DNA of 64,000 nucleotides, taken from positions 14,028-78,027 of the forward strand of contig JAZNXL010000024.1 in assembly GCA_045593905.1 (NCBI GenBank), given 5' to 3'. The notes under the pieces were generated by a model. That model worked only from the letters and a program-made list of their open reading frames with translations, was not told the origin of the DNA and did not search any database. The DNA comes from Eubacteriales bacterium (GTDB lineage: Bacteria > Bacillota > Clostridia > Oscillospirales > QAKW01). This document shows, piece by piece, positions 545 through 48,190 of the stretch (its first letter is position 1; each line of letters begins with the position of its first letter). The translations under genes and the position numbers were made by a program.

Positions 545-3025
545 ATGGCAGACATTAAACATAGTAGTGAAATAGATTTCGAGGGCCAAAAGGTCATTGA
601 AATAGACGTTGAAAACGAGGTGCGCAACGCGTTTATTGACTATGCAATGAGCGTTATTACCGCACGTGCGCTTCCTGACGTACGCGACGGCTTAAAGCCT
701 GTTCACAGACGTATTCTTTATACAATGCACAGGGCAAACCTAACCCCCGATAAGCCGTATAGAAAATCGGCAACTACCGTCGGTGATGTGCTCGGTCACT
801 TCCACCCCCACGGTGACGCATCGGTTTATGATGCAATGGTTCGTCTTGCGCAAACCTTCTCATTACGCTATCCGCTTGTTGACGGTCAGGGTAACTTTGG
901 TTCAATCGACGGCGACGGCCCTGCTGCTTACCGTTATACCGAAGCAAGAATGCAAAAAATTGCACTCGAAATGCTAACTGACATTAAAAAAGATACCGTT
1001 GACTTTATGCCCAACTTCGACGATAAAGACGAAGAGCCTACGGTTTTACCCGCACGTTTTCCAAATCTTCTTGTTAACGGCTCATCAGGTATTGCGGTTG
1101 GTATGGCTACCGAAATTCCGCCTCACAATCTTTCAGAGGTAATCGACGGCACAATCGCGCTTATGGAAAACCCCGATATTGATATTGAGGGACTTATGGA
1201 ATATATCCAAGGCCCCGACTACCCCACAGGCGGTATCATTATGGGCAGAACAGGTATTCGTAACGCTTACAAAACAGGCCGCGGTAAAATTTACGTTCGC
1301 GCTAAAGCCGAGATTGAAGAACAAAAAGACGGTAGATTCAAAATTGTCGTAACCGAAATTCCTTATATGGTAAGAAAATCGGCACTTATCGAAAAAATTG
1401 CCGACGAGGTTAAGGGTGAACGCATTGTTGGTATTTCTGATATCCGCGACGAGTCAGATAAAGACGGTCTCAGGTTTGTAATTGAGCTTAAAAAAGAAGC
1501 AAATGCACAGGTTGTTTTAAACCAGCTTTACAAATACACCGAGATGCAGGCAACCTGCTCGGCTATAATGATTGCGCTTGTTAATAATGTACCAAAGGTG
1601 CTTAACCTTAAAGAAATGTTAAGCGAGTACGTTAAGCATCAGCGCAGCGTAATTACCCGCCGTACACAGTTTGATATTAATAAAGCAAAAGCAAGAGCGC
1701 ATATTCTCGAAGGGCTCATTAAGGCTATCGACTATATTGACGAGGTTATTGAAATTATTAAAAAATCAAAGTCAATTGCCGATGCAAAGGTTGCGCTTTG
1801 TGAAAGATTTGGTCTTGACGACCTTCAGGCACAGGCTATTGTTGATATGAAACTTGGTCAGCTTGCAGGCCTTGAACGCGACAAGATTGAAAACGAGTAC
1901 AAAGAACTTACCGAAAAAATTGCCGACCTTGAAGATATTCTTGCAAACGCATGGCGTGTTGACGAGATTATCAAGACCGACTTACTTGAAATTAAACGTA
2001 AATACGGCGATGCAAGACGCACCGAGATTGGTGTTGGTGAAATCGGTATTGAAGACGAAGACTTAATTCCTGTTGAAGACTGCGTATTCACTCTTACCGA
2101 CGCAGGCTACGTAAAACGTATTCAAACATCAGAATACCGTGCTCAGCATAGAGGCGGTGTTGGTGTTAAGGGTGTTAAAACAAAAGAAGACGACACCGTT
2201 CGCCAAATGTTTGTTGCATCAACCCACGATTATATATTGTTCTTTACATCACTTGGCAGAGTTTATAAGGCAAAAGGCTACGAAATCCCCGAGTGCTCAC
2301 GTACTGCAAAGGGAACAAGCGCTGTTAATATCATTCCGCTTATCTCGGGCGAAAAGGTTTCATCAATGATTAGAGTAAGCGAGTTTAACGATGATTACTT
2401 GTTAATGGTTACAAGAAACGGTACCGTTAAAAAGACATCAATGACCGAGTACTCACATATTCGTAAAACAGGTGTTATTGCAATAGTACTCGATGACGAG
2501 GATACACTCGACACAGTACTTAAAACAACAGGTGACGATAACCTTATTATCGCATCGCACTTTGGTAAGGCTATCAAGTTCTCTGAGGCAGATGTTCGAC
2601 CCATGGGCAGAGTTACCCGCGGTGTTCGCGGCATTAAGCTTGTGGAAGGCGACTACGTTGTTGGCGCTGCAATCGAGCAACCCGATTCGGCACTTCTTAC
2701 AATTACTGAAAACGGCTACGGCAAACGCACCGATACAAGCGAGTATCGTGTTCAGGCAAGAGGCGGTAAAGGTGTTGGTAACTATAACATTACCGATAAA
2801 ACAGGTAACGTTGCGGCAGTTGCCGTTACAACCGGCGAAGAAGATGTGTTACTTGTAACATCGGCAGGTCAGCTTATGCGTACCGCTACAAGCGAAATCT
2901 CAATGTTCTCAAGAACAACCAAAGGCGTTCGCGTTGTAAGACTTCCCGACGGCATTAAGGTTATTGATATGGCTCTTTCACAAAAAGAAGACGAAGAAGA
3001 AATAACCGAAACAACTGAAGAATAA
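545..3025 (+). CDS. gyrA: DNA gyrase subunit A
   Basis: 826 aa. Contains [26 protein letters not shown], the HPHGD motif, repeated C-terminal beta-pinwheel blades and an acidic tail. Confidence 0.98.
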
Positions 3026-3027
3026 AT

Positions 3028-3055
3028 AAAAAAGCACTCTTACGAGTGCTTTTTT
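3028..3055 (+). terminator. Intrinsic terminator after gyrA (left copy of a duplicated hairpin)
   Basis: A-run, stem GCACTC, loop TTAC, stem GAGTGC, then T6. Almost identical to 3982-4008. Confidence 0.8.
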
Positions 3056-3057
3056 AT

Positions 3058-3297
3058 TTAAAAATCGTGCCTTGTTCCACAAGAAATACCGTTTTGCTCA
3101 AATAAACAAACAATGCATTCTATTTTTTCATAACAGTCAGTATCGTTTAAACTATCATTTAATAATATATTTTTTATTTCACATAATAATTTGTAACATT
3201 TTAATTCAAGCAACTGATTTATATTACAATCATTAAATTTAATCTCGATTGTTCCTTGATTTAAAGCATTAATCAACAGCTCTTTATATAGTTCCAT
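3058..3297 (-). CDS. Hypothetical 79-aa protein (helical, Cys-containing), in an AT-rich islet
   Basis: ORF with a strong RBS (GAGGAGGAAATT before the ATG). Divergent from an XRE gene. No family recognised. Confidence 0.55.
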   Translation of the reverse strand: MELYKELLINALNQGTIEIKFNDCNINQLLELKCYKLLCEIKNILLNDSLNDTDCYEKIECIVCLFEQNGISCGTRHDF

Positions 3298-3313
3298 AAT
3301 TTCCTCCTCAAAC

Positions 3314-3390
3314 TATGGGGGTTATATCCCCTTAATAAAAAAGATTATAACCCCCATAATAATTATTGTCAACAATAAGGGGGATATAAT
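3314..3390. promoter_or_regulatory. Divergent promoter/operator region with nested inverted repeats
   Basis: TATGGGGGTTATA (3314-3326) pairs with TATAACCCCCATA (3346-3358). TTATATCCCCTTA (3322-3334) pairs with TAAGGGGGATATAA (3376-3389). This gives four GGGG(G)-W-TATA half-sites in about 80 bp. Confidence 0.5.
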
Positions 3391-3391
3391 A

Positions 3392-3595
3392 ATGATTGTA
3401 TTTAATAAATTGTGGCAAATGATGGAACAAAAAGGCATTAGCACATATTATTTAAGAGAAAAGTGCGGCATTGACAGTAAAACTGTAAGGCGCCTTAGAA
3501 ATAACGAAAACGTCGAAACAAAAACACTTGATAAAATATGTAACGTTCTTGATTGTGGTTTAAACGACATAGCTGAATTTATAAAAGAAAAGTAA
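3392..3595 (+). CDS. XRE (Cro/CI-type) helix-turn-helix transcriptional regulator, 67 aa
   Basis: The pattern KGISTYYLREKCGIDSKTVRRLRNNENVETKTLDKICNVLDC is typical of HTH_XRE proteins. Confidence 0.8.
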   Translation: MIVFNKLWQMMEQKGISTYYLREKCGIDSKTVRRLRNNENVETKTLDKICNVLDCGLNDIAEFIKEK

Positions 3596-3609
3596 AATTA
3601 TAAATTATA

Positions 3610-3640
3610 AGATAACCTTTATATAAGGTTATCTTTTTTA
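3610..3640 (+). terminator. Intrinsic terminator
   Basis: AGATAACCTT / AAGGTTATCT 10-bp stem followed by a T-run. Confidence 0.7.
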
Positions 3641-3740
3641 TTAGTCGAAGGCTTTATATAGCCTAATAGTATCATATATAGCCTACTTTGTCAATATTAT
3701 AAGTCTATAATTAGTCTATATGGCAAAGAGAGGTTATATA

Positions 3741-3983
3741 ATGGACACATATAAAGTTGTAAAAGAAAGAATTATATGTTTGTGTGAGCAAAAGGGGATA
3801 ACAATTAATCAATTAGCAACCGATTCGGGTGTTGCCCCATCAACTATAAAAAATATTTTATATGGTAAAAGTAAAAATCCTGGAATTGTAACAATAAAAA
3901 TGTTATGTGATGGTTTAGGAATATCATTAACATCATTTTTTAATACAACAGAGTTTGAAAATCTTTTACAAGAAATAAAATAA
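3741..3983 (+). CDS. XRE-family HTH transcriptional regulator, about 80 aa
   Basis: Contains KGITINQLATDSGVAPSTIKNILYGKSKNPGIVTIKMLCDGLGISL. The ATG at 3741 has an AGAGAGG RBS, while the ORF-track start at 3720 has none. Confidence 0.75.
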   Translation: MDTYKVVKERIICLCEQKGITINQLATDSGVAPSTIKNILYGKSKNPGIVTIKMLCDGLGISLTSFFNTTEFENLLQEIK

Positions 3984-4008
3984 AAAAGCACTCTTGCGAG
4001 TGCTTTTT
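3982..4008. terminator. Bidirectional terminator (right copy of the duplicated hairpin) between the XRE gene and the DeoR gene
   Basis: A6, GCACTC, TTGC, GAGTGC, T5. Differs from 3028-3055 only in the loop base and T-run length. Confidence 0.8.
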
Positions 4009-4009
4009 A

Positions 4010-4765
4010 TTATGATAAAATTTCACAGCCGGATTGTAAAATAAGCTCTTTAAGCTCGGTTGGTATTTCACTGTCGGTTATTAAATAATCAAATTCTGAA
4101 AAATCGGCAATTTTGCATAAACAGGTTTTGTTAAGCTTAGAACTGTCACAAAGCAGTAAACGTTTTTTTGAATTTTTAAGCATACATCTTTTAACCTCGG
4201 CTTGATATGGCGAGCCTTCGGTTGCACCGTCTGATGAAATACCGCCGCACGAAATAATACAAAGGTCTGCGCGGTAGTTTTCTAAAAACCTGATTGTTTC
4301 GTGACCTATAACAGCATCTGAAGATTCGGTTGCTTCGCCGCCGCACAAAAGTACTTGCATACTATTATTTAGTATTGCTTTTATGCAATTTCTTATACCG
4401 TTTGTAATAACTGTTACGCCTTGTACATTATGTAATAAAGATATAACCTGTCCGGCACTTGAGCTTGAGTCGATAAACAGCGTTGTGTCAGTGCCAATAA
4501 AGTCGAGTGCAAGCTCGGCGATAAGACGTTTTTGGTGTATATTTTGTTTTTCGCGGATTGCGGCAGGGTTTTCGGTGGCGTTACCGCTTATAAGATATGC
4601 ACCACCGTGCGAGCGACCAATAGCGCCCGTGTGCTCAAGCTCTCTAAGGTCACGCCTGACTGTTGCCTCCGATACAAACAGGGCAGCTGCAAGTTCGCCG
4701 ACTGTTGCGCTTTTTTTAGTCTTTAATATATTTGTAATTTGTTCCTGACGTTCATTCTTAAACAT
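4010..4765 (-). CDS. DeoR-family transcriptional regulator
   Basis: N-terminal HTH (VGELAAALFVSEATVRRDLRELE) plus a DeoR C-terminal sugar-phosphate sensor domain. Divergent from rhaA. Confidence 0.9.
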   Translation of the reverse strand: MFKNERQEQITNILKTKKSATVGELAAALFVSEATVRRDLRELEHTGAIGRSHGGAYLISGNATENPAAIREKQNIHQKRLIAELALDFIGTDTTLFIDSSSSAGQVISLLHNVQGVTVITNGIRNCIKAILNNSMQVLLCGGEATESSDAVIGHETIRFLENYRADLCIISCGGISSDGATEGSPYQAEVKRCMLKNSKKRLLLCDSSKLNKTCLCKIADFSEFDYLITDSEIPTELKELILQSGCEILS

Positions 4766-4800
4766 AATTTTGTTCGCTTTTTAACATTTTCAACATATTT

Positions 4801-4818
4801 TTGCACAATGTTGTGCAA
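4801..4818. promoter_or_regulatory. Perfect palindrome TTGCACAA-TG-TTGTGCAA in the DeoR/rhaA divergent intergenic region
   Basis: Seen directly in the sequence. A related half-site, TAGCACATTGTTGT, follows about 25 bp downstream. Confidence 0.4.
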
Positions 4819-4937
4819 ATGTGTTCATATATTAGCACATTGTTGTCCATTTTGCAAGATATTGAGCAAATATAGACAAAAATTTTTTAATATGATAGAC
4901 TAAAAGAGTAAAAATAAAAATTTGCAGAGGTATACTT

Positions 4938-6197
4938 ATGGAAAACAACATTAAGCAAAGCTATGAACTTGCAAAACAAGCATATGCCAAAATCGGTGTT
5001 GATACCGACAAGGTGATTGAACAGTTGAAAAAAATCAGAGTTTCAATCAACTGCTGGCAAGGCGACGACGTTAACGGTTTTTTATTTAAGGATATTGCTC
5101 TTTCAGGCGGTATTCAAACAACAGGTAACTATCCCGGAGCCGCACGCACTGCTGACGAGTTAAGAGCCGACCTTGAAAAAGCAATGTCACTCATTCCCGG
5201 TAAGCACAAGCTAAATCTTCATGCTATTTATGCTGATACCGAAGAAAAAGTTGACCTTGACGAGCTTGAGCCCAAGCATTTTGAAAAATGGGTAGAGTGG
5301 GCAAAGAAAAATGAAATAGGTCTTGACTTTAACCCCACCTGTTTTTCACATCCGCTTGCTGAGTCGGGCTTTACACTTTCTTCAGCCGACCAAAAAACAA
5401 GAGAGTTTTGGATAGAGCACTGCAAGCGCGCAAGAAAAATTGCCGACTACTTTGGCAGAGAGCTTAACGATAAGTGCGTTACAAACTTCTGGTTCCCCGA
5501 CGGATATAAAGACATTCCCGTTGACCGCGAAGCACCCCGCACACGTATGATTAGCGCTATGGACGAGGTTATGGCTGAAAAATACGATGAAAAATACAGC
5601 CTTGATGCAATCGAGAGCAAGGTATTTGGTATCGGTGCTGAAAGCTACACAGTATTTTCAAACGAAACAGCTCTTGGTTACGCAATCAGCCGTAACAAAG
5701 CATACTGCCTTGACGCAGGCCACTTCCATCCCACCGAAGTTATCTCTGATAAAATTTCGTCGGTACTTCAATATACAAACGAGCTTTTACTTCACGTTTC
5801 ACGCCCTGTTCGTTGGGACTCTGACCACGTTGTTATTATGGATGACGAGCTTATGGCAATTGCGCAATCACTCGTTAGAACAAACCTTGTACAAAGAACA
5901 CATATCGGTCTTGATTTCTTTGATGCTTCAATCAACCGTATTGCTGCATGGGTAATCGGTACACGCAATATGATTAAAGCGCTTCTTCGTGCTTACCTTG
6001 AACCCACCGAAATGCTTAAAAAATTAGAAAACGACGGCGACTACACCGCTCGTCTTGCGCTTACCGAAGAATATAAGAGCTATCCCTTTGGCGCTATTTG
6101 GGACTACTACTGCTTAACAATGGGCGTACCCACACGCGAAAGCTGGCTTGACGATGTTAAAGAATATGAGAAAAAAGTTTTAGAGGAGAGAAAATAA
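4938..6197 (+). CDS. rhaA: L-rhamnose isomerase
   Basis: 419 aa with RhaA-typical length and sequence ([34 protein letters not shown]). Confidence 0.92.
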
Positions 6198-7009
6198 TGA
6201 ACGATATTAAATCAGCTAAATTTTTTAAAGAGTTTTGCGCACTTACATCAAATATGTACCGCTTGGGCTGGGACGAGCGTAACGGCGGTAACGTTAGCCT
6301 TATGCTCGATGAGAATGAGGTTAAAAAATACATAGACGTAACAGATGTAAAACGCACCTTCCAAATTACATTTGACGCATCATACTTAAAGGGTAAAATG
6401 TTCCTTGTTACAGGCAGCGGTAAATATTTTAAAAACGTTGAAGCTGACCCCGAAAACAACATTGGTATTGTACGCGTTGGTGAGGACGGTAAAACAATGG
6501 AAATTCTTTGGGGCTATGAAGACGGCAGCCGTCCTACCTCAGAGCTTTCTTCACACTTTATGTCACACATTGAGCGTTTAAAGGTTGACCCCGAGCATAC
6601 AATCGTACTCCACACACACTGCACAAACGTAATCGCAATGACATTTATTCACTCACTCGACGAAAAAGAATTTACAAAAACTCTTTGGCATATGATTACC
6701 GAGTGTCTTGTTGTATTCCCTGACGGTATCGGCGTTCTTCCGTGGATGGTTTGCGGCACTGACGAAATCGGTTACGCAACTGCTGAAAAAATGAAAGACC
6801 GCAGACTTTGTGTTTGGGGTATGCACGGTATCTTTGGTACAGGTAAAAACATTGACGAAGCTTTCGGACTTGTTGAGACTGTTGAAAAGGCGGCTGAAAT
6901 CTATATGAAGATAGCTAATATGGATATTAAAGCTCACATTACTGACGACGAACTCAAAGCACTTGCAAAAGAGTTTGGTCTTACACCCAGAGCAGGTTAT
7001 TTAGATTAA
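6197..7009 (+). CDS. rhaD: Rhamnulose-1-phosphate aldolase (class II aldolase/adducin family)
   Basis: 270 aa. Contains GWDERNGGNVS and the His-rich metal site HTHCTNVIA....GMHGIFG. Start overlaps the rhaA stop. Confidence 0.85.
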   Translation: MNDIKSAKFFKEFCALTSNMYRLGWDERNGGNVSLMLDENEVKKYIDVTDVKRTFQITFDASYLKGKMFLVTGSGKYFKNVEADPENNIGIVRVGEDGKTMEILWGYEDGSRPTSELSSHFMSHIERLKVDPEHTIVLHTHCTNVIAMTFIHSLDEKEFTKTLWHMITECLVVFPDGIGVLPWMVCGTDEIGYATAEKMKDRRLCVWGMHGIFGTGKNIDEAFGLVETVEKAAEIYMKIANMDIKAHITDDELKALAKEFGLTPRAGYLD

Positions 7010-7017
7010 TACACAAC

Positions 7018-7048
7018 AAAAAAAGACACCCAGTCGGGTGTCTTTTTT
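7018..7048. terminator. Bidirectional terminator between rhaD and the PEPCK gene
   Basis: A-run, GACACCC, AGTC, GGGTGTC, T6. Confidence 0.85.
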
Positions 7049-7052
7049 ATTA

Positions 7053-8831
7053 TTATTTAAGGTTAGCTTTAAGAGTTTCGAGTTGGTTAACAAGCTCTTT
7101 GGGGAGTCTGTCGCCAAACTTTTTGTAGTGTTCTTCAATCTCTTTAGCTTCTTGTGTCCAGATGTCTTTATCAACCTCGAGAATTGATTTGAGTGTTTCA
7201 ATATCAAGGTCAAGGTCAGTTAAGTCAATATCTTCAGGACGCGGAACATAGCCGATAGCGGTTTCAACAGCATCAGCCTTGCCTTCGCAACGGTCGATAA
7301 TCCAGTTAAGAACTCTCATATTGTCGCCAAAGCCGGGCCAAATAAAGTTACCTTCGTCGTCGGTTCTAAACCAGTTAACGTTAAAGATTTTGGGAGCCTT
7401 GTCGCCAAGCTTTTTGCCCATTTCGAGCCAGTGTGCAAAGTAGTCGCCCATGTGGTAACCACAGAAGGGGAGCATTGCCATCGGGTCGCGGCGAACAACG
7501 CCTACTGCACCTGCAGCGGCAGCAGTTGTTTCAGAAGCCATAGCCGAACCAATGAATACACCGTTTTCCCAGTTCTTTGACTGGTAAACGAGCGGAGCGC
7601 ATTTAGCACGGCGTCCGCCAAATACGATAGCCGAAATCGGAACGCCTGCGCCTTTGTCAAATTCTTCAGAGATGCAGGGGCAGTTTTCAGCAGGAGCTGT
7701 AAATCTTGAGTTGGGGTGAGCAGCGCAGGTTGACTTGTCAGCCTTGTCAAACTTTGATGCATCCCAGGGGTTACCGCGCCAGTCGATAGCGTTTTCGGGT
7801 AAGTTTTTGTTAAGACCTTCCCACCAAACAGTGTTATCGTTTAAGCAGTGAGCAACGTTTGTAAAGATTGTGTTTTTCTTTGTTGATGCAAGAGCATTGA
7901 AGTTTGATTTTTCGTTAGTACCGGGAGCAACGCCAAAGAAACCGTTTTCGGGGTTGATAGCGTAAAGTCTGCCGTCGGGACCTATGCGCATCCAAGCGAT
8001 GTCGTCACCAACTGTCCAAATCTTGTAGCCCTTTTCTTTAAGGTACTTGGGCGGAATAAGCATTGCGAGGTTTGTTTTGCCGCAAGCTGACGGGAAAGCA
8101 GCTGCAATGTATTTAACTTCGCCCTGCGGGTTTTCAAGACCGAGAATAAGCATATGCTCAGCCATCCAGCCTTCTTTCCAGCCTTGGTAAGAACCAATAC
8201 GGAGCGCAAAGCATTTTTTACCAAGTAAAACGTTACCGCCGTAACCTGAGTTAACTGAAATAATTGTGTTGTCTTCGGGGAACTGGCAAATGTATCTTTG
8301 TTCAGGGTCAATGTCGCATCTTGAATGGAAGCAACGTACCCAATCATTGCTGTCGCCAAGAACCTCTAATACCTTCTTATCAACACGTGTCATAATGAGC
8401 ATATTAAGAACAACGTAGATAGAGTCAGTAACCTCAATACCGATTTTAGCAAGCGGTGAGCCGATAGGACCCATTGAGAAAGGAACAATGTACATTGTTC
8501 TGCCTTTGTAGCTGTCACGAGCGATGTCGTAAAGCTTTTTGTACATTTCTTTGGGGTCGTACCAGTTGTTTGTAGGCCCAGCATTTTCTTTTTCGCGTGA
8601 ACAAATGAATGTTCTGTCTTCAACACGGGCAACGTCGTTTACTTTTGTTCTGTGAAGGTAGCAGCCGGGAAGTTGCTCTTGGTTAAGGGGCTCAAGTTCG
8701 CCGATTTCACAAGCTTCAGCGCGAAGAGCGTCTCTTTGCTCATCAGAACCGTCAATCCAAACCACTTTGTCGGGGTTAACAAGCTCTTTAATTTCGTCGA
8801 GCCAAGCAACAACTGTTTTGTTTGTTGTCAT
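7053..8831 (-). CDS. pckG: Phosphoenolpyruvate carboxykinase (GTP)
   Basis: 592 aa. Kinase-1a motif FPSACGKTNLAML and the GTP-PEPCK core WMAEHMLILG. Confidence 0.95.
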   Translation of the reverse strand: MTTNKTVVAWLDEIKELVNPDKVVWIDGSDEQRDALRAEACEIGELEPLNQEQLPGCYLHRTKVNDVARVEDRTFICSREKENAGPTNNWYDPKEMYKKLYDIARDSYKGRTMYIVPFSMGPIGSPLAKIGIEVTDSIYVVLNMLIMTRVDKKVLEVLGDSNDWVRCFHSRCDIDPEQRYICQFPEDNTIISVNSGYGGNVLLGKKCFALRIGSYQGWKEGWMAEHMLILGLENPQGEVKYIAAAFPSACGKTNLAMLIPPKYLKEKGYKIWTVGDDIAWMRIGPDGRLYAINPENGFFGVAPGTNEKSNFNALASTKKNTIFTNVAHCLNDNTVWWEGLNKNLPENAIDWRGNPWDASKFDKADKSTCAAHPNSRFTAPAENCPCISEEFDKGAGVPISAIVFGGRRAKCAPLVYQSKNWENGVFIGSAMASETTAAAAGAVGVVRRDPMAMLPFCGYHMGDYFAHWLEMGKKLGDKAPKIFNVNWFRTDDEGNFIWPGFGDNMRVLNWIIDRCEGKADAVETAIGYVPRPEDIDLTDLDLDIETLKSILEVDKDIWTQEAKEIEEHYKKFGDRLPKELVNQLETLKANLK

Positions 8832-9698: not shown

Positions 9699-10246
9699 TA
9701 CTTGTTAATAGCTTTAAAGGTAGAAAGCATAACCTCTGAGTTCTGATTAAAGTAATCGTAATCAGCAGGCTCTGCAATAAACGAGTATACAAATACCACG
9801 TTTTTGTTTTTAATAAAAGTGTGTGCAATACGCAAAACACCGTCATTGGTCTCGCCCTCGTATACAATGCGATAAGCATCGTACTCGGCAACTGTGTACT
9901 CGCCTTCTGAAACAAGGTTATAGCCGTTTATTGTTTTAGGAAGCTCTGCAACATAGTCGCGAACGTAGCTGTCAAAGGCGAGTTCGTCTTTTGAAAGGTC
10001 GTATGCGCAAATGGTCACGTTATCGCGATACTTGTCGGCAATACCAACCGATGGTGTTACAAACGCAACAGAACGCTCTTTTTTAGAGTCTTTAACCTCC
10101 CAAAAATCAGGGTACTCAATTTGTATGCCAACAGGTGATGAGCGGTATAGCTTGTACCCCTCGTTTTCGGCTCTGTTCATACTGCAAGAGCAGGTTAAAA
10201 CCACAGTAATTATTAAGGTTAATGCAAATAAAATTTGCTTTTTCAT
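9698..10246 (-). CDS. Secreted or lipoprotein of unknown function
   Basis: N-terminal signal peptide MKKQILFALTLIITVVLTCSCS. Stop overlaps the rsmA start. Confidence 0.6.
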   Translation of the reverse strand: MKKQILFALTLIITVVLTCSCSMNRAENEGYKLYRSSPVGIQIEYPDFWEVKDSKKERSVAFVTPSVGIADKYRDNVTICAYDLSKDELAFDSYVRDYVAELPKTINGYNLVSEGEYTVAEYDAYRIVYEGETNDGVLRIAHTFIKNKNVVFVYSFIAEPADYDYFNQNSEVMLSTFKAINK

Positions 10247-40717: not shown

Positions 40718-43057
40718 ATGAACATAACAAGACCAAGAGTAAAAGTAAAAGCTCAAAAATGGGCAAAATACAAATATAACTTAATATCGGCGCTCGGTCC
40801 TGACGGTAAGCGTATGACAAGCTGTGATGAACATATTGCGCTTTCGCAAAAGGCGGCAAGCGAGGGTATGGTACTGCTTGAAAATAACGGTATTTTACCG
40901 CTTAAAAAAGGCACAAAGGTTGCGCTTTTTGGTATGGGTACACTCGACTATACCAAAGGCGGCGGCGGTAGTGGTGCCGTTTACTGTAAATATACATACA
41001 ATTTTTACGAGGGCTTTAAGAAAAAAGAGCCTTACGTCAGCGTTTATGAGCCTGTTACAAAATACTACTATGACTACGCAATGGAGCATCTTGACGAGTA
41101 CGCAGGCGAGCGTAACAACGACCACCTTGTTCCTTGTATTGAACTCCCCGAAAAGCTTTTAAACGATGCCGCAAAAGAGTGCGACGTTGCGGTTATTACA
41201 ATAAGCCGTACCTCACACGAGGGTGCTGACCGTTTTTCAGAAAAAGGCGACTTTTACTTAACTGACGACGAGCAGCAAACTGTTGATGCCGTCACATCGG
41301 TATTCGATAAATGCGTTGTTATTTTAAACGTTGGCGGTATGGTTGACGTTTCGTGGATAAAGAATAACGATAAAATCGGTGCGGCACTTCTTGCATGGCA
41401 AGCAGGCCAAAACGGTGCGCTCGCGGCAGCTGATATTATTTGCGGTGACGTTAACCCGTCAGGTAAGCTTACCGATACATTTGCAAAAACCTTTGACGAT
41501 TATCCGTCAGCTGATACCTTTAACAAAAGCGAAGACTATGTTGAATACTTTGAAGATATTTACGTAGGCTACCGCTATTTTGAAACTATCCCAGGCGCCA
41601 AAGACAAGGTAAACTACCCCTTTGGCTACGGTCTTTCATACACAACCTTTGATATTTCAAAACCTGTGGCAAAACTCGACGGTGACACAATAGAAATTTC
41701 AACAACCGTTAAAAACACAGGCGATATGGCGGGCAAAGAGGTTGTTCAAGCATATTACTCGGCACCGCAGGGTGTACTTGGCAAAAGCGCTATTGAACTT
41801 GGTGCATTCCAAAAAACAAAGCTTTTAGCCCCCGGCGAGAGCGAGGATATTACAGTTTCGTTTAAAGTGGCCGATATGTCAAGCTACGATGACCTCGGCA
41901 AGCTTAAAAAATCAGCATACCTTTTAGAAAAAGGCGATTACAGGTTCTTTGTAGGTAACAACTGCCGTAACTTAATACAGGCTGACTACGTTTACACAGT
42001 GGCTGATGAGTTTATTGTAACCAAGCAGCTTAGCGAACTTTGTCCGCCAATCAACCTTAAAAAGCGTATGCTTGCTGACGGTAGCTTTGAAGCTTTGCCC
42101 GAAGGTAAATTTAAACACTACAAACCCGAACCGTACGTAAACACCGCAAAGCCTGTTGAAAGCGCAACTCCTTTCACACTCGAAGACGTATACAATCAAA
42201 AGCTCACCCTCGACGAGTTTTTAACACAGTTTACCGACGACGAGCTTGTTACAATAGTTACAGGCTGTGGCTCAAACAGAAGCGTTTCAACAACGGCAGG
42301 TATGGGCGGTATCGTAAGACTTGATGTACCAATTATGCCTACAGCCGACGGCCCTGCAGGCGTGCGTATTAGACCTACAGTTGGTATTGAAACAACCGCT
42401 TGGCCGTGTGCAACACTGCTTGCTTGTACCTGGAACACCGACATTATGTATGAAATAGGTAAAGCGGGCGCAATCGAGGCAAAAGAGCAAGGACTTGCAA
42501 TATGGCTTACACCCGCGCTCAATATCCACAGAAACCCGCTTTGCGGACGTAACTTTGAATACTTTAGTGAAGACCCTGTTGTTGCGGGTAAGTTTGCTGC
42601 TGCAAAGGTAAACGGTATTCAAAGCCAAAAAATCGGCGCATCAATCAAACATTTTTGCTGCAACAACAAAGAGGTTAACCGTAAGTTCTCTGATAGCCGT
42701 GTTTCAGAACGCGCTTTACGTGAAATTTACCTCAAGTGCTTTGAAATTACAGTTAAAGAATCTCAGCCCTATACACTAATGAATTCGTACAACATTGTAA
42801 ACGGACAAAGATGCTGCGAAAGCTATGAGCTTAACCAGCTTATCCTTCGCGATGAATGGGGCTATGAGGGTATGATAGAGACTGACTGGTGGACACCCTG
42901 TGACCAATCAAACAATGTTCTTGCAGGTTGCGATGTTCGTATGCCTGTAGGCGACCCCGAGGTGTTAAAGGGCGCACTCCATAACAAAAAGATTACTCGC
43001 GGACACCTTGAAAAATGTGCAAAACGCATACTCGAAATGATGTTAAAGATTGACTAA
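40718..43057 (+). CDS. GH3 beta-glucosidase-like enzyme, permuted (copy 2, tandem paralog)
   Basis: Collinear with copy 1, with long identical nucleotide stretches. ATG at 40718 follows GGAGG. Confidence 0.92.
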   Translation: MNITRPRVKVKAQKWAKYKYNLISALGPDGKRMTSCDEHIALSQKAASEGMVLLENNGILPLKKGTKVALFGMGTLDYTKGGGGSGAVYCKYTYNFYEGFKKKEPYVSVYEPVTKYYYDYAMEHLDEYAGERNNDHLVPCIELPEKLLNDAAKECDVAVITISRTSHEGADRFSEKGDFYLTDDEQQTVDAVTSVFDKCVVILNVGGMVDVSWIKNNDKIGAALLAWQAGQNGALAAADIICGDVNPSGKLTDTFAKTFDDYPSADTFNKSEDYVEYFEDIYVGYRYFETIPGAKDKVNYPFGYGLSYTTFDISKPVAKLDGDTIEISTTVKNTGDMAGKEVVQAYYSAPQGVLGKSAIELGAFQKTKLLAPGESEDITVSFKVADMSSYDDLGKLKKSAYLLEKGDYRFFVGNNCRNLIQADYVYTVADEFIVTKQLSELCPPINLKKRMLADGSFEALPEGKFKHYKPEPYVNTAKPVESATPFTLEDVYNQKLTLDEFLTQFTDDELVTIVTGCGSNRSVSTTAGMGGIVRLDVPIMPTADGPAGVRIRPTVGIETTAWPCATLLACTWNTDIMYEIGKAGAIEAKEQGLAIWLTPALNIHRNPLCGRNFEYFSEDPVVAGKFAAAKVNGIQSQKIGASIKHFCCNNKEVNRKFSDSRVSERALREIYLKCFEITVKESQPYTLMNSYNIVNGQRCCESYELNQLILRDEWGYEGMIETDWWTPCDQSNNVLAGCDVRMPVGDPEVLKGALHNKKITRGHLEKCAKRILEMMLKID

Positions 43058-43091
43058 ATAAAAAATCTCGTAGTTTTTACTACGAGATTTT
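43055..43091 (+). repeat. 37-nt direct repeat, left copy (includes the GH3 stop codon and an intrinsic terminator)
   Basis: TAAATAAAAAATCTCGTAGTTTTTACTACGAGATTTT is identical to 48154-48190. Confidence 0.9.
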
Positions 43092-43175
43092 ATTTTGTGA
43101 AAATTTTTGCCGTTCTAAATAATAACTTCGCTTACGAGAGGTACTTATCGGCACGGGCAACTCGTCTCCTACATA

Positions 43176-43461
43176 TAAATTTAATATATTATTGCAATTT
43201 TTTAAAAAACATGATAAACTGATAATTGCCAAACTAACTGAATACTTGTGTGAAATTGGGTGTATTTTCTTTTTATAAGGATAAATACGCTCTATTTTCG
43301 TAACCTATAATTATTACGAATTTGATAAAAATGCAAATTTCAACGAATGTATGTTGCGAGCGTTTTTACGCCCTTTTCACACTCGGTTAGTTTGGCGACT
43401 ATCGGAGTTTGCGTTTTTTGTGCGGTTGCTTCGGTAGCCGCACTTTTTAATTTTTAGGAGG
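43176..43461 (+). promoter_or_regulatory. Conserved leader copy 1: promoter, about 230-nt structured 5'UTR, terminator, RBS
   Basis: TTGCAA (43192-97), 17 nt, TAAACT (43215-20). Long-range helix 43228-43255 with 43375-43396. Terminator 43420-43448. AGGAGG at 43456. Near-identical to 45549-45834. Confidence 0.65.
43420..43456 (+). terminator. Leader terminator/attenuator hairpin (UUCG loop) directly upstream of the RBS
   Basis: GTGCGGTTGC TTCG GTAGCCGCAC followed by T5AAT5. Confidence 0.7.
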
Positions 43462-43466
43462 AAAAA

Positions 43467-45473
43467 ATGAAAAAACGAATTTTAAGCTTAGTACTTGTTT
43501 TAGTTATGTCGGTATCTTTTGCAGCTACTATGTGTGTTACAGCTAGTGCCTATACATATAATGGAAGCGCTGCCGTTGATTATGCCAATCAGCATTGGAA
43601 TGATGGTGTAGGCAAGTGTGCAACCTTCGTATCTAATTGTTTGGCAGCAGGTGGTTGCAACGCGTGGTCTTCTTTAGTTGTAAATTTAAGAGAACAGTTA
43701 ATTAGTGGCGGTTGGGGAACCGAATATCTTCTTACAGAGAATGGACAATCAATATATGAATATCAAAACTCTGGAAAGCTTTCTGCGGGCGACCCCATAT
43801 TTTTTTATTGTAAAAAATGTAAAACTTTCACACATGTGGTTATTTGCACTGGATTCAATAGCGAGGGAAAAGCAACTGCATCTGGACATAATGCCGCATG
43901 GAATAATGTTACTTACATAGCGGGATTTTGGGACGCTTCAGAGCATAAAGGTGACGATATTTTAGTATATTCATTTCATATTGACGGAGACGATATAAAC
44001 TATCACAACCTTAGTGAAGGTGTATATTTCATATTGAATATGGGTCAAAAAAGATATCTGGCAGTTGACAACGGAATAGATGAGAATGCGCAGAACGTAT
44101 CAGCTCATATATTTTGGAACAGCGACGCTTATAAAATGTCAATTACAAAGGTAGGGGATGCCTATAAAATGCGACCTCTTTGTTCTGCTTCAAGACTAAT
44201 AAATGTGTATGCAGATACAGTTGTGAGTGGAAAAAATGTAAATATTTACAACGAAACTAATCATGCATCGCAGTGGTGGAGATATGAGCTTGTCGGCGAT
44301 TCGTTTATTATAAGAAACGCCCAAAATCCAAGTTGTGTACTTACCGTTGATGGCGAAAATGTAATAGTATCAACATATACAGGCTCCGACTACCAAAAGT
44401 GGCAAATATACGCTCCTCAAGATACAATTGCTTATAATGCAAATGGTGGCACAGGGGCGCCGCCTTCGCAAGTCAAATATCACAATATTGACCTTGTGTT
44501 GACTTCTCAAACTCCTGTTCGCGAGGGCTATACCTTTTTGGGTTGGTCACATAGTCCTACGGCAACACAACCAAGTGCATACCCCAGTGGTGTTTATCAT
44601 AGTTTGACGGGAGCAACTTTGTATGCAGTATGGTCTAAAAATACCGTGCACACTTGTGAATTTTCAAATTATATTTATAACAATGATGCAACTTGTATAA
44701 ACAATGGTACAGAAACAGCTACTTGCAGTTGTGGTAAAACAAATACAAAAGAAAAAGCTAACTCGGCAACTGGTAATCATTATTGGGGAGAATATATATC
44801 AAACAAGAATGCAACCGAAACAGCTGATGGTACAAAAACACGTACTTGCGCGGTTTGTGGTCATAGCGAAACTGCAGTAGACGTTGGTTCAAAACTTCCT
44901 GCAATCAAGGACACAACGGCAATATTTACCGACGTAGCTCAAGATTGGTATACAACCTTTGTTAACTACGCATACACCTACGGCATATTCAAGGGCAACG
45001 AAGACGGCACGTTTAAACCGCTTTCAAATATCACACGTGCTGAATTTGTGCAGGTGCTTGCAAACATTACAGGCGTTGATACCTCAAACAAAGCGGTTGT
45101 AACAAAGTTTAGCGATGTGAGAGCAGGCGATTGGTTTGCACCTGCTGTTAAGTGGGCAAACGATAACGGAATTGTTGCAGGTAAATACGCAAATCAGTTT
45201 GCTCCCGAAGAAAACATAACACGTGAGCAAATGTGCGTTATGATTGTAAACTATGCAAAATACAGGGGAATTACTCTTGCAGTAGTTGAGGCAAAAGAGG
45301 CGTTTGCTGACGATTGGGCAATAAGCTCATGGGCAAAAGATGCAGTTTATGCTTGTCAGATGGCTGACATTGTAAACGGCAAAGGCGAGGGAAGATTTGA
45401 CCCACAAGGCACAGGTCTTAGAGCCGAAGCATCGGTTATATTTACAAAATTCCATCAAAATTATTTAAAATAG
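43467..45473 (+). CDS. Secreted multidomain S-layer-homology protein: papain-like putative amidase, ricin-type lectin, Listeria-Bacteroides repeat, Cys-rich module, 3x SLH
   Basis: Signal peptide ending TASA. Cys/His pair GKCATFVSNCL / FTHVVICTG. QxW-like motifs SQWW and YQKW. NANGGTGAPP...YTFLGWS. Three SLH repeats at the C-terminus (FTDVAQDWY.., FSDVRAGDWF.., FADDWAISSW..). Confidence 0.85.
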   Translation: MKKRILSLVLVLVMSVSFAATMCVTASAYTYNGSAAVDYANQHWNDGVGKCATFVSNCLAAGGCNAWSSLVVNLREQLISGGWGTEYLLTENGQSIYEYQNSGKLSAGDPIFFYCKKCKTFTHVVICTGFNSEGKATASGHNAAWNNVTYIAGFWDASEHKGDDILVYSFHIDGDDINYHNLSEGVYFILNMGQKRYLAVDNGIDENAQNVSAHIFWNSDAYKMSITKVGDAYKMRPLCSASRLINVYADTVVSGKNVNIYNETNHASQWWRYELVGDSFIIRNAQNPSCVLTVDGENVIVSTYTGSDYQKWQIYAPQDTIAYNANGGTGAPPSQVKYHNIDLVLTSQTPVREGYTFLGWSHSPTATQPSAYPSGVYHSLTGATLYAVWSKNTVHTCEFSNYIYNNDATCINNGTETATCSCGKTNTKEKANSATGNHYWGEYISNKNATETADGTKTRTCAVCGHSETAVDVGSKLPAIKDTTAIFTDVAQDWYTTFVNYAYTYGIFKGNEDGTFKPLSNITRAEFVQVLANITGVDTSNKAVVTKFSDVRAGDWFAPAVKWANDNGIVAGKYANQFAPEENITREQMCVMIVNYAKYRGITLAVVEAKEAFADDWAISSWAKDAVYACQMADIVNGKGEGRFDPQGTGLRAEASVIFTKFHQNYLK

Positions 45474-45475
45474 AA

Positions 45476-45505
45476 TAAAAAAACACCCGTAAAGGTGTTT
45501 TTTTA
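45476..45505 (+). terminator. Intrinsic terminator after the SLH gene
   Basis: A-run, ACACC CGTAAA GGTGT, T7. Confidence 0.7.
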
Positions 45506-45548
45506 TGCTTCGCTTTGCCTACCTTGCCTATAGAGGCAAGGGTACGGT

Positions 45549-45834
45549 TAAATTTAAATTATCATTGCAATTTTTAATAAAACGTGGTAAACTGATATTT
45601 GCCAAACTAACTGAATACTTGTGTGAAATTGGGTGTATTTTCTTTTTATAAGGATAAATACGCTCTGTTTTCGCAACCTATAATTATTACGAATTTGATA
45701 AAAATGCAAATTCCAGCGATTGTAGGTTGCGAGCGTTTTTACGCCCCATTTCACACTCGGTTAGTTTGGCGACTATCGGAGTTTGCGTTTTTTGTGCGGT
45801 TACTTCGGTAGCCGCACTTTTTAATTTTGGGAGG
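45549..45834 (+). promoter_or_regulatory. Conserved leader copy 2
   Basis: TTGCAA (45565-70), 17 nt, TAAACT (45588-93, with TG extension). Helix 45601-45628 with 45749-45770. Terminator 45794-45822. GGGAGG at 45829. Confidence 0.65.
45794..45828 (+). terminator. Leader terminator/attenuator hairpin, copy 2
   Basis: GTGCGGTTAC TTCG GTAGCCGCAC followed by T5AAT4. The G-to-A change turns a G.U pair into an A-U pair. Confidence 0.7.
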
Positions 45835-45842
45835 ATGATTAA

Positions 45843-47870
45843 ATGAAAAAATGTATTGCATGTGGCAACAAGCTAAAAAAAAGCAGTGAATTTTGTAGCA
45901 AGTGCGGTGCACAGGTTTTACAAGAGGATACGTTACAAAACGATACTTCAAACTTGACGGAACAAACAGAACAAACAGTAACTGTTCTGAAAAAAGGTGG
46001 CTTTATAAATTTTTTAAAAAAGCATATTTTCATTATTTTAGGTGCTGTTGTTGCAATTGCCGCAATAACAACTACTTTGGTTTTGCTTATTCCTAAACTA
46101 ACTTCAGTAGTAACTATGGGTAAACCCAAAAGAACAAATCATGTGTTGTATTTTAAAGACAAAGAAATGTTCTTTTATAATCTTAAAGAAGAACAAGCTC
46201 CAATACAGGTTACATCCGATTTTGATAGAGATAATTTAATTGAAAAAGACCAATATGGTTGGTGGATTTCAAGCGATGAAACATACTTATGTAAAAATGG
46301 CACCTTGCTTTTTTATCCGGGACAAATATCGTCTAACGGAGAAGATGAAGTTAAAAATGTAAGTATATATTATCGCAATGTTAAAGAGCAGGAATCGGAG
46401 CCTGTAAAAATAGATTCTGACATACGCGAGGGTTCCGTAAACGCTTCTGGTACAATTGTTATTTACGTAAAGGGCAATGAAAGAAATTTATTTCAGTATT
46501 TTGTAGAAACTGAAACACGCGAGAAAATTGCAAGCGGGGTTGATTGGTTTGAATATACCGAGGACCACGAAAAAATATTATATCAAAATTCAGAGGGCGA
46601 TATTTATTTATTAAACTCCGAAAATAAAAAAGAAAAGATTGTAAGTGAAGCGTCCAGCGTAGAGTATGTAAATTTTGATTTTTCTATTATATACTATATT
46701 AAAGACAATACACTTTATAAACAAACAGTCGGCGGCGAACGCGAGAAAATTGCTGAAGGAGTGAGCTATGTTATTAATGTATACGATTCGGGCGAGATAT
46801 ATTATAGAAAAACCGAAGAAATAACCTTAACCTATATGGATTTGGTTGAAGATGATTTAAAGGATAGCGATGCTTCAATTACTATGCCTGAAAAACCAAC
46901 TGCACCAAAGGCGTATGATTATGACACGTGGGATGAATATTATGATGCATGGGATATATATGACTTTGCGTATGAAAATTATAAAACCCAACTTGAAAAA
47001 TACGAAGATAAATTATATCGTGACAGTCTTCGTGAAATTCTTTATGAGTCAACATTAACCTACGATAACGACTCGTTATATTTTTATAATGGCTCAGAAG
47101 AAAAGAAAATTACAGACAACTATGCATACTATGACGGATGGAATTATTCAGAAAAGTCGCCTATTATTACATATAATGTATGTGACAGGTCTAATTTGAA
47201 GACAGTAAAGTTTAGCGAATTAATAGTTAAGTATGAAAATGACGAGATTGAGAATATAGATGATTTTTCATATTTTGATACACTTCATGAAGGTGATTAT
47301 ACATATATAGCAAGTAAGGATAATGTAACTAAAGTTGAAGTTGAAAAAACTGCTAAAGTTTTAATAAATGAATCAGGCACCGGCGCATATTACATAGAGC
47401 GTCCCGTCGAGGAAAAGAATTACGGAGAATTATATCATGTAGACATTATAGATGGTGCCATAGGTAAACCTAAGTTATATGACAGTGACGTTTGCTATTA
47501 TAATATATATTTTATAGATGACAACAGAATTGCATATTATAAAAATGCCAAAGAAAATGATGGCGACCTTTATATTAACAAAGAAGAAATTGACTTTGAT
47601 GTTTGGAGCTTTCAATATTACGAACATTGTGATACACTTGTTTACTATACTGACTATAATACCGAAAAAGAGTACGGTGTATTAAAAATATATAAAGACG
47701 GCGAGTCAACAAAAATTTCAGATGACGTGTATGACCATTATATCACAGAAGACGGCACAGTTTTATTCTTGTATGATTACAGTACGGAGTATTACAGAGG
47801 TGAGCTTGATATGTGGAAAGACGGCGAGAAAACAAAAATAGACGATGATGTAATGGCTATTATAGATTAG
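45843..47870 (+). CDS. Zinc-ribbon / single-TM protein with a large repeat-rich Tyr/Asp/Glu-rich ectodomain
   Basis: CIACG..(x10)..CSKCG zinc ribbon, TM segment HIFIILGAVVAIAAITTTLVLLI, then about 580 aa with a recurring Y-Y/F-x-K/D-G/N beta-strand-like periodicity. Confidence 0.8.
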   Translation: MKKCIACGNKLKKSSEFCSKCGAQVLQEDTLQNDTSNLTEQTEQTVTVLKKGGFINFLKKHIFIILGAVVAIAAITTTLVLLIPKLTSVVTMGKPKRTNHVLYFKDKEMFFYNLKEEQAPIQVTSDFDRDNLIEKDQYGWWISSDETYLCKNGTLLFYPGQISSNGEDEVKNVSIYYRNVKEQESEPVKIDSDIREGSVNASGTIVIYVKGNERNLFQYFVETETREKIASGVDWFEYTEDHEKILYQNSEGDIYLLNSENKKEKIVSEASSVEYVNFDFSIIYYIKDNTLYKQTVGGEREKIAEGVSYVINVYDSGEIYYRKTEEITLTYMDLVEDDLKDSDASITMPEKPTAPKAYDYDTWDEYYDAWDIYDFAYENYKTQLEKYEDKLYRDSLREILYESTLTYDNDSLYFYNGSEEKKITDNYAYYDGWNYSEKSPIITYNVCDRSNLKTVKFSELIVKYENDEIENIDDFSYFDTLHEGDYTYIASKDNVTKVEVEKTAKVLINESGTGAYYIERPVEEKNYGELYHVDIIDGAIGKPKLYDSDVCYYNIYFIDDNRIAYYKNAKENDGDLYINKEEIDFDVWSFQYYEHCDTLVYYTDYNTEKEYGVLKIYKDGESTKISDDVYDHYITEDGTVLFLYDYSTEYYRGELDMWKDGEKTKIDDDVMAIID

Positions 47871-47979
47871 CTTTACAACTGATACGCAAATTTGGTATAC
47901 TTAATTTAAGTATACCCACAACATTATAGCACAAAACAATCTTAAAATATACTTAAAATAAGATTTTTTTGGAGATGTT

Positions 47980-48156
47980 ATGAGAAATAAAGCTAATAAG
48001 CATTTGGGAATAGAGGTTGACCCCGAGCTGCATAAAAAGTTGCACTTTATTGCAAAGTACGAGGGTCGTTCTGCAAACGGACAAATTCTTTATCTTATAA
48101 GACAGTGTATTCGTGAGTTTGAAGACAAGCACGGAAAAATAGAAGATGAGCAATAA
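47980..48156 (+). CDS. Ribbon-helix-helix (Arc/CopG-like) DNA-binding protein, 58 aa (below the ORF-track cutoff)
   Basis: My translation: MRNKANKHLGIEVDPELHKKLHFIAKYEGRSANGQILYLIRQCIREFEDKHGKIEDEQ. GGAG RBS at 47971. A perfect 23-bp palindrome lies upstream at 47894-47916. Confidence 0.7.
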   Translation: MRNKANKHLGIEVDPELHKKLHFIAKYEGRSANGQILYLIRQCIREFEDKHGKIEDEQ

Positions 48157-48190
48157 ATAAAAAATCTCGTAGTTTTTACTACGAGATTTT
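48154..48190. repeat. 37-nt direct repeat, right copy (RHH stop codon plus bidirectional terminator)
   Basis: Identical to 43055-43091. The FTR-like gene stop codon lies 2 nt further on the minus strand. Confidence 0.9.

Follow-up and report, generated by a model that had tools for sequence, protein, structure and literature searches.

Results

An AT-rich islet separates gyrA from a DeoR-family gene

We analyzed a 64,000-nucleotide stretch of the genome of a member of the Eubacteriales (assembly GCA_045593905.1, contig JAZNXL010000024.1, positions 14,028 to 78,027; hereafter the window), in which a 0.95-kb islet of three small genes lies between the convergent genes gyrA and a DeoR-family regulator and is flanked on each side by a copy of one terminator hairpin (Table 1). 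The islet encodes a 79-residue protein, p79, a divergently transcribed XRE-family regulator, XRE1, and, behind the hairpin T_mid, a second regulator, XRE2. A first-pass annotation of this DNA had proposed an AT-rich islet with this gene content and a mid hairpin after gyrA, and the list of open reading frames (ORFs), the Pfam matches, and the base composition bear it out. The G+C content of positions 3055–3977 is 26.8%, compared with 43.9% for gyrA, 40.7% for the DeoR gene, and 40.3% for the genome, and by G+C content the islet falls in the lowest 0.1% of same-size genome windows. The same succession of gyrA, hairpin, and islet is found, at 98.7 to 98.9% identity, on Logan contigs from two further sequencing runs, and these independent contigs rule out an assembly artifact.

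The window starts inside gyrB, and the origin-proximal order dnaA-dnaN-recF-gyrB-gyrA, followed by DeoR-rhaA-rhaD, is conserved in relatives. The DeoR gene is divergent from rhaA (4938–6197) and rhaD (6197–7009), and RhaA and Aldolase_II domains are found in the syntenic relatives. Rfam and tRNA scans of positions 2900–5000 returned only sub-threshold terminator look-alikes and no tRNA. We conclude that the segment is probably an accessory islet within the ≈33-nt spacer between the convergent core genes gyrA and the DeoR regulator of rhaA/rhaD, a spacer that is essentially one bidirectional intrinsic terminator.

Table 1. Features of the gyrA/DeoR region, in window coordinates
Feature	Position	Strand	Basis and remarks
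gyrA, 826 aa, left flanking core gene	545..3025	+	ORF list; homologues carry PF00521/PF03989; synteny in relatives
Left repeat copy	3024..3054	.	Perfect bidirectional terminator A6-GCACTC-TTAC-GAGTGC-T6; serves convergent gyrA/p79
p79, 79 aa, acidic, predicted three helices	3058..3297	-	ORF list, alignments, AlphaFold2 model
Divergent control region, 94 nt	3298..3391	.	Predicted promoters and four half-sites
XRE1, 67 aa, Cro/C1-type helix-turn-helix (HTH) domain only	3392..3595	+	Pfam HTH_26, E = 1.1e-18, 67.6 bits (cut-off 22)
T_mid, XRE1's own terminator hairpin	3609..3635	+	AAGATAACC-loop-GGTTATCTT, then T run; unrelated to flanking pair
XRE2 upstream region, candidate operators	3655..3720	.	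Direct repeats read by eye
XRE2, 80 aa, HTH_3/HTH_26	3741..3983	+	HTH_26 36.5 bits, HTH_3 35.4 bits
Right repeat copy	3978..4008	.	Loop TTGC; bidirectional terminator of convergent XRE2/DeoR
DeoR-family regulator, right flanking core gene	4010..4765	-	Pfam HTH_DeoR and DeoRC

The flanking hairpins form a local pair

A repeat search of the window recovers the direct repeat AAATAAAAAAGCACTCTT[A/G]CGAGTGCTTTTT in two copies of 31 nt that are 97% identical, the right one 954 nt downstream of the left. Their lone mismatch falls in the hairpin loop, just as the first-pass annotation had claimed. The 26-nt core of the repeat has no other match in the window and none in 100 shuffles. Read by eye, and allowing for two indels of a single A each and a T run shorter by one base, the similarity extends over ≈41 nt, from the last 8 nt of gyrA (AAGAATAA) to the ATT just before the next stop codon. 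The TAA stop codon of XRE2 (3981–3983) opens the right repeat, which also holds the last XRE2 codons, and the DeoR stop codon (4010–4012) lies 1 nt beyond the right hairpin; the repeat provides the stop codon of XRE2 (or of XRE1 in the relative L037 described below) and part of that of p79. With the terminator now on both sides of the insert, gyrA/p79 and XRE2/DeoR each keep a terminator.

The objection, raised in the first-pass annotation itself, that the hairpin may be a generic terminator holds in part. The GCACTC stem is not unique, but its only further occurrence in the 1.68-Mb genome (C32:737-762) stands behind an unrelated gene with another loop and other flanks, whereas the gyrA/DeoR flanking pair shares three of four loop bases as well as its flanks. 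Perfect hairpins of the form A4-stem-loop-stem-T4 number 228 in this genome, with stems such as GCACCC recurring ten times, and a broader census yields 423 terminator-like hairpins, which form 91 pairs with identical stems and no more than one difference in the loop. Nineteen of these same-hairpin pairs lie ≤15 kb apart, compared with 1.25 expected from random pairing (≈15-fold enrichment), and local terminator duplication is thus a real and recurrent process here. The hairpin is partly a generic terminator, and the flanking pair is far more alike than generic terminators are; chance resemblance of two such terminators is ruled out by the proximity test together with the shared flanks. The 5.1-kb cassette at 43055–48190 of the window, to which the islet had been likened in its geometry, is indeed flanked by an identical 37-nt hairpin pair.

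Near-identical hairpin pairs or triplets surround short segments elsewhere in the same genome, at C15:4471/5268, C32:2061/4931, C49:25851/26794, and C53:17847/18194, with more such sets at C60:4990/5157/6976 and C69:17517/17713/31741. Lying between them are, among others, genes for a lipoprotein-like protein of 199 aa and a kinase-like protein of 171 aa, and a stretch of 347 nt without a convincing ORF. The two loops of the C32 pair are reverse complements of each other.

The gyrA/DeoR junction varies among close relatives

The Genome Taxonomy Database (GTDB) species representatives of the genus share only ≈77% gyrA identity with the window and have other downstream genes, and so allow no empty-site test. 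Exact-protein look-ups of DeoR and gyrA returned nothing; a region-restricted search with the gyrA C terminus found the informative relatives. One of these, L038 (gyrA protein 98% identical over the C-terminal 267 residues, DNA ≈90%), has a single hairpin with stem GACACC and loop TTAT, and 33 nt separate the two stop codons. A second, L037, is 97 to 98% identical to L038 in DNA and has the order hairpin, p79, XRE1, hairpin; XRE2 is missing, both hairpins read GACACC/CAAA, and the repeat starts in AAGAATAA. In a third, L040 (GCA_054284525.1; gyrA 83% identical over the same region), a 141-aa lipoprotein-like gene is followed by a single unrelated hairpin. Synteny downstream of DeoR (rhaA-rhaD-PEPCK) is kept in all three, so the ancestral state is most simply gyrA-terminator-DeoR. 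The junction is a hot spot for small inserts. The comparison of relatives that had been suggested for this junction thus shows an islet that is absent from one close relative and partial in another, with an unrelated gene at this spot in the more distant L040, and supports the proposed accessory insertion at a conserved origin-proximal locus. A second small insert occurs in L040, where a 56-aa gene (10044–10214), by eye resembling ribbon-helix-helix genes, sits at the convergent terminator between rhaD and PEPCK and is flanked on both sides by hairpins; neither the window nor L037 or L038 has it.

The window can be aligned with L037 without a break across gyrA, p79, and XRE1, with identities of 89% in the flanks, ≈72% (DNA) and 64.6% (protein) for p79, ≈90% for XRE1, and ≈98% for the control region between the two genes. 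The p79-side junction is the same in both (T6, AT, TTA stop), which argues for one ancestral p79/XRE1 insertion. T_mid is not found in L037, where XRE1 reads directly into the right hairpin copy and ends at a stop codon within the duplicated 3′ portion of gyrA. An event between AAGAA microhomologies separates the two forms. The islet is therefore composite, a feature absent from the first-pass annotation, with the p79/XRE1 cassette (unit 1) and XRE2 (unit 2, behind T_mid) as separable units. XRE2, which occurs in the window and in a second strain of the same species and not in L037, is either a species-specific later addition or was lost in the sister species.

That second strain (contigs L016 and L018, backed by L025) has the same islet. 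To the right of its right hairpin, positions 1–960 of L016/L018 together with L025 (corresponding to window 3978–7122) hold a lone inverted DeoR gene, only 75% identical, followed by a GCACCC hairpin and the PEPCK gene; this arrangement takes the place of DeoR-rhaA-rhaD, and the loop of the right hairpin in L016 is inverted (GTAA). A Logan chimera was judged an unlikely source of this right side, as exact identity between the two hairpins is limited to 28 bases and the junction of the hairpin with this DeoR gene recurs in a second run. The whole inter-terminator block is exchanged in this strain, and the variation starts and stops at terminators.

The XRE/p79 cassette is a conserved module

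The first-pass annotation had offered an orphan regulatory module as one reading of the divergent pair, and such a module proves to be real and conserved. In three contexts unrelated to one another (Anaerotruncus colihominis, Anaerotignum, and one metagenome contig), the p79-family gene always faces an XRE gene encoding 70 to 86 aa across ≈100 nt, with remaining neighbors that all differ and are housekeeping genes. Fifty-five GTDB loci were compared, most of them from gut or rumen Oscillospiraceae, Ruminococcaceae, or “Eubacteriales” and one from the cultured A. colihominis DSM 17241, whose cassette lies within 2,294,067–2,300,309 of NZ_CP102255.1; 42 of their 52 family genes have a divergent XRE gene within 300 nt by a crude hidden Markov model (HMM), and 11 of 20 distant members sampled across the class likewise have a divergent XRE gene. 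A paralogue of p79 in the same genome as the window (contig C72, 45% identical) is divergent from a 69-aa XRE gene and has a different predicted palindromic operator around its −35 box. The partner XREs belong to different subfamilies (HTH_26-type or HTH_3-type, 16 to 22% identical), and close XRE1 homologues also pair with unrelated divergent genes; the XRE thus looks like the controller of p79 rather than its obligate binding partner.

Two cassette copies in one genome (G276) share homology limited to the two genes. Since within-genome copies are 44 to 91% identical, their spread is not IS-like proliferation. An Anaerotignum metagenome-assembled genome (MAG; L030, 2474–4511) carries two tandem divergent XRE/small-gene pairs, one of an XRE with an 82-aa gene (weak HTH_3) and the other of an XRE with the family member P0196, followed by a co-directional 77-aa ORF without a family, which suggests that cassettes can stack.

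Unrelated hairpins bracket the cassette in other genomes

Hairpin-containing direct repeats (20 to 80 nt, span 200 to 6000 nt, hairpin included) are few in the 55 GTDB loci (296 kb): only four were found, and three of the four tightly bracket the XRE/p79 cassette. With the cassette covering ≈10% of each locus, such a share amounts to strong enrichment. Bracketed copies are seen in L061 (Faecousia sp.; 27-nt repeat, span 573), L068 (a human-gut MAG with an HTH_3-type XRE; 28 nt, span 658), and L084 (25 nt, span 589), and, from the class-wide sample, in L049 (31 nt, span 801) and L051 (28 nt, span 572). Including the window and L037, seven genomes have seven different and mutually unrelated hairpins. 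The bracketed copies have no terminal inverted repeats and no conserved ends, and their boundaries are the ORF ends of the two genes. We had not expected that unrelated genomes would repeatedly bracket the same cassette in this way. Relatives of the L061 genome and of G260, which has a matching hairpin pair, are too distant or rearranged to give clean empty sites, and metagenome pattern scans for the predicted L068 empty site and for the gyrA end of the window's species gave no match. The L061 Faecousia genome has a third copy of its 27-nt bracket hairpin, 96% identical, ≈8 kb downstream (G337:C33:65389-65415).

p79 defines a family of small acidic proteins

p79 has a computed pI of 4.5, and two alignments of its family reveal a MELYKE N terminus, conserved C34, Y35, K42, D52, C55, and E60, and an RHDF C terminus. 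The 79-aa ORF, whose conservation had been in question, is indeed conserved: a profile search returned 802 clusters (50% identity level), the majority of them from Oscillospiraceae and allied Clostridia of gut and rumen. A word-index search with the profile of the first alignment returned 568 proteins, among the listed hits, all those with a source name are “hypothetical protein” and not one carries a precomputed Pfam domain. The family is patchy, being present in 24 of 300 genomes of the class in one to five copies. There is no Pfam, NCBIfam, or PADLOC family match to p79 (the insignificant best values are E = 0.2 for Pfam and E = 0.022 for PHROGs), an HMM search against PDB sequences gave nothing significant, and a Foldseek search of the predicted fold against the PDB gave nothing below E = 2. 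With p79 as the only query, tblastn found no match in 50,697 phage records, and with the Anaerotignum member P0196 as the only query it found none in 72,556 plasmid records. The family is previously undescribed, having no Pfam model and no fold match in the PDB.

Two members call for comment. L114 (contig JAZUMA010000017.1, 2063 nt) has a partial match to the family and is binned as an alphaproteobacterial MAG; it is most likely a mis-binned Clostridia contig. In the bracketed locus L084, the p79 homologue (3001–3234; G339:C75:20803-21033) contains an in-frame TAG, which marks either a pseudogene or a sequencing error, and the XRE gene and operators look intact.

The control region points to repression by XRE1

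Both XRE1 and XRE2 match an HTH domain above the curated cut-off, and XRE1 orthologues of 67 to 89% identity adjoin p79 homologues in L037, L012, and L008. The 94-nt region between p79 and XRE1 contains a predicted p79 promoter that agrees with the sigma-70 consensus at 12 of 12 positions (TTGACA-17-TATAAT, minus strand, 3372 to 3344), with a GGAGG ribosome-binding site downstream; the promoter candidates for XRE1 on the plus strand are weaker. Four GGGGG(W)TATA half-sites of alternating orientation lie at 3317–3326(+), 3323–3332(−), 3346–3355(−), and 3379–3388(+), and one of them overlaps the −10 box of p79. All three exact matches to this motif in the window fall inside the control region, which holds in addition one copy with one mismatch. 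The motifs are kept with XRE1-type cassettes in G036, Faecousia, and L084, including other families of the order, and the control region is far better preserved in the sister species L037 than the p79 gene, as the identities given above show.

From these features, XRE1 would bind the four half-sites and thereby shut off the consensus promoter of p79 and probably also its own; judged from the sequence, the very strong p79 promoter is most likely under XRE1 repression, with XRE1 also controlling its own expression. Once derepressed, p79 may act by protein–protein contact on a host target other than the XRE. We conjecture that p79 is a small effector working through protein contact, possibly in a metal- or redox-dependent manner through its Cys/Cys/His residues; what counts against such a reading is the low confidence of the structural models, two AlphaFold2 runs having given three helices at a predicted local distance difference test score of 66 to 68.

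XRE2 is 22% identical to XRE1 and has candidate operators of its own, the direct repeats TATATAGCCTA (3655–3665 and 3675–3685) and AGTCTATA (3702–3709 and 3713–3720). A promoter-like TTGACA-17-TACTAT with an extended TG (3666–3694, minus strand) points left toward T_mid and XRE1; it could be a divergent promoter, an antisense promoter, or chance.

Discussion

Origin of the second hairpin copy

The second hairpin copy would derive from the resident terminator and was most likely made at insertion, as a long target duplication over the whole hairpin. This is suggested by the extent of the repeat, which runs from the last 8 nt of gyrA to the start of the DeoR stop region and so covers in effect the whole convergent spacer, and by T_mid, which lies between the copies and is unaffected. 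Several observations weigh against it. The pairs differ between the window (GCACTC/TTAC) and L037 (GACACC/CAAA) despite the same junction, so a single ancestral target duplication needs a later concerted change; the whole loop of the single hairpin in L038 differs from the L037 pair at 97 to 98% flank identity. In G152, an orthologous cassette (83% identical, at the same locus as in G260) stands between two unlike hairpins, whereas the G260 pair matches, and a hairpin copy can therefore appear or vanish after insertion. Moreover, we found neither a recombinase nor terminal inverted repeats or conserved element ends for the islet, and with four site states only, parsimony does not separate gain from loss.

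Matching hairpins could instead arise after insertion, by short-range copying between neighboring terminators through gene conversion or replication template switching, in which case short two-terminator cassettes such as XRE/p79 would often end with matching hairpins. The unlike pairs of sister species at identical junctions, the contrast between G260 and G152, and the genome-wide enrichment of same-hairpin pairs at short range would all follow, as would the inverted loop of the right copy in L016, which is expected from strand switching in a palindrome. Such copying does not readily explain why the repeat reaches past the hairpin into gyrA and gives XRE1 or XRE2 its stop codon, why T_mid was not converted, or why the cassette at 43055–48190 has an identical pair over the much longer distance of 5.1 kb, and conversion requires a pre-existing similar hairpin on the other side. 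We regard later copying as unlikely, and duplication at insertion as considerably more probable.

We think it very improbable that the islet is a decayed site-specific integrative element (a prophage, an integrative and conjugative element, or a cis-mobilizable element) whose repeats are attL and attR sites with a common core restoring the gyrA 3′ end and whose integrase either works in trans or has been lost. In favor of such an origin, tyrosine-integrase elements typically leave direct repeats that contain the 3′ end of their target gene, the ends of elements often carry XRE genes, and genes for a serine recombinase and a Y1 transposase are present elsewhere in the genome; yet there is no integrase inside or beside the islet, the tblastn searches of phages and plasmids (one family member per collection) gave no match, the neighbors are housekeeping genes, and the same 0.55-kb cassette sits between unrelated hairpins in six or more genomes with no common att core. 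The ORF list contains no recombinase between gyrA and DeoR, and the only candidates were seen on another contig, where the genome's only IS200-like Y1 transposase gene (G000:C52:21237-22100; 145-aa frame, 124.8 bits) is back-to-back with the serine recombinase gene, a pair that is probably part of a mobile element. No link between this Y1 transposase and the hairpin duplications was seen. Nor does the islet resemble an insertion sequence or transposon: none of its three small ORFs has a transposase domain, and its ends differ between copies and coincide with ORF ends. A repeat that includes the gyrA end is present, as a target duplication would give, although its copies differ from the empty-site hairpin and could stem from later copying. 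An integron cassette is likewise not indicated, since the islet has its own consensus promoter, its hairpins are terminators (perfect palindromes with A and T tracts), and there is no adjacent integrase.

The first-pass annotation had also suggested a CI/Cro-style switch or an addiction module, and neither suggestion is supported. The gene divergent from XRE1 does not encode an HTH protein; XRE2 has the same direction as XRE1 and stands behind a terminator, p79 has no match in the phage records by tblastn, and the neighbors are housekeeping genes. That p79 and XRE1 form a toxin–antitoxin or addiction pair or a defense switch that stabilizes the locus is highly unlikely, even though small XRE proteins are frequently antitoxins, XRE1 and XRE2 match HigA, HipB, CapH, and control-protein models weakly, and the distribution is patchy and accessory. 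Rather than a co-transcribed operon, the two genes are divergent with separate promoters, a layout also seen at 42 of 52 other loci; XRE1 consists of an HTH domain and has no toxin-binding extension, and the partner XREs are of different subfamilies. p79 is acidic and helical, and no toxin fold or family was recognized among Pfam, NCBIfam, PADLOC, PDB sequences, or folds. Finally, the bracketed L084 copy has the in-frame stop in p79 beside an intact XRE gene.

A more general reading is that XRE/p79 may be a mobile cassette of minimal size, specific for intrinsic terminators, where its arrival would duplicate the entire hairpin (25 to 41 nt) without transposase, inverted repeats, or fixed ends, its mobility coming from a host structure-specific activity or from p79, with terminators serving as general gene-capture sites in Oscillospiraceae and allied gut Clostridia. 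In this full form, we consider it quite doubtful.

Comparison with known systems

The closest published parallel is the PeSL (promoter-early stem-loop) cassettes of T4-type phages (Arbiol et al. 2010, PMC2839356; Comeau et al. 2014, PMC4122927). There, repeated terminator stem-loops delimit small accessory genes and mark the exact points at which close relatives gain, lose, or replace them, mini-circles can be released, and a single conserved promoter-plus-terminator motif is reused throughout the phage genome. The empty, two-gene, three-gene, and alternative forms of the gyrA/DeoR site similarly all end at a hairpin, and recombination between the flanking copies of the islet could release a circle. 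The islet differs from PeSL cassettes in that its hairpins vary by locus and genome, no promoter is shared, and the host is a bacterial chromosome. With transposable elements that duplicate their target site, including casposons, and with the duplication of CRISPR repeats by Cas1, the islet shares a direct flanking duplication of target sequence, and the unit duplicated by Cas1 is palindromic as well. Unlike these systems, the islet has no transposase or Cas1 in or near it and neither terminal inverted repeats nor conserved ends, and its duplication of 25 to 41 nt tracks hairpin size rather than a fixed stagger.

Phage cI/cro switches, the C-proteins of restriction-modification systems, and SinR/SinI resemble unit 1 in that the gene for a small Cro/C1-type HTH protein lies back-to-back with a small gene that has a strong promoter, and in their palindromic operators that overlap −10 boxes (here predicted); p79, however, is not an HTH protein, a restriction enzyme, or a recognizable SinI-like peptide, there is no prophage context, and its family has no described member. 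In type II toxin–antitoxin systems with XRE antitoxins (HigBA, HipBA, and MqsRA), a small XRE gene likewise adjoins a gene for a small protein of patchy, accessory distribution, whereas here transcription is divergent, no toxin-binding domain is present in the XRE, and p79, an acidic and helical protein, matches no toxin family. The islet is best described as an XRE-controlled small-gene cassette of an undescribed family whose insertion site, the terminator of two convergent genes, recurs on either side of it. It does not represent a phage switch, and an addiction module is improbable as well.

These findings define an undescribed family of small proteins, mostly wired to an XRE repressor, in abundant gut and rumen Clostridia, with a cultured host, Anaerotruncus colihominis DSM 17241, that is open to experiments. 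Together with the 5.1-kb cassette, the islet points to bidirectional terminators between convergent genes as preferred sites of gene gain in these genomes, the insert having a copy of the terminator at either side. Should the duplication accompany insertion, this would be a form of gene integration that keeps the neighboring units insulated with no dedicated recombinase in the insert; if it comes from later copying, it would reveal concerted evolution of terminators over sub-kilobase distances.

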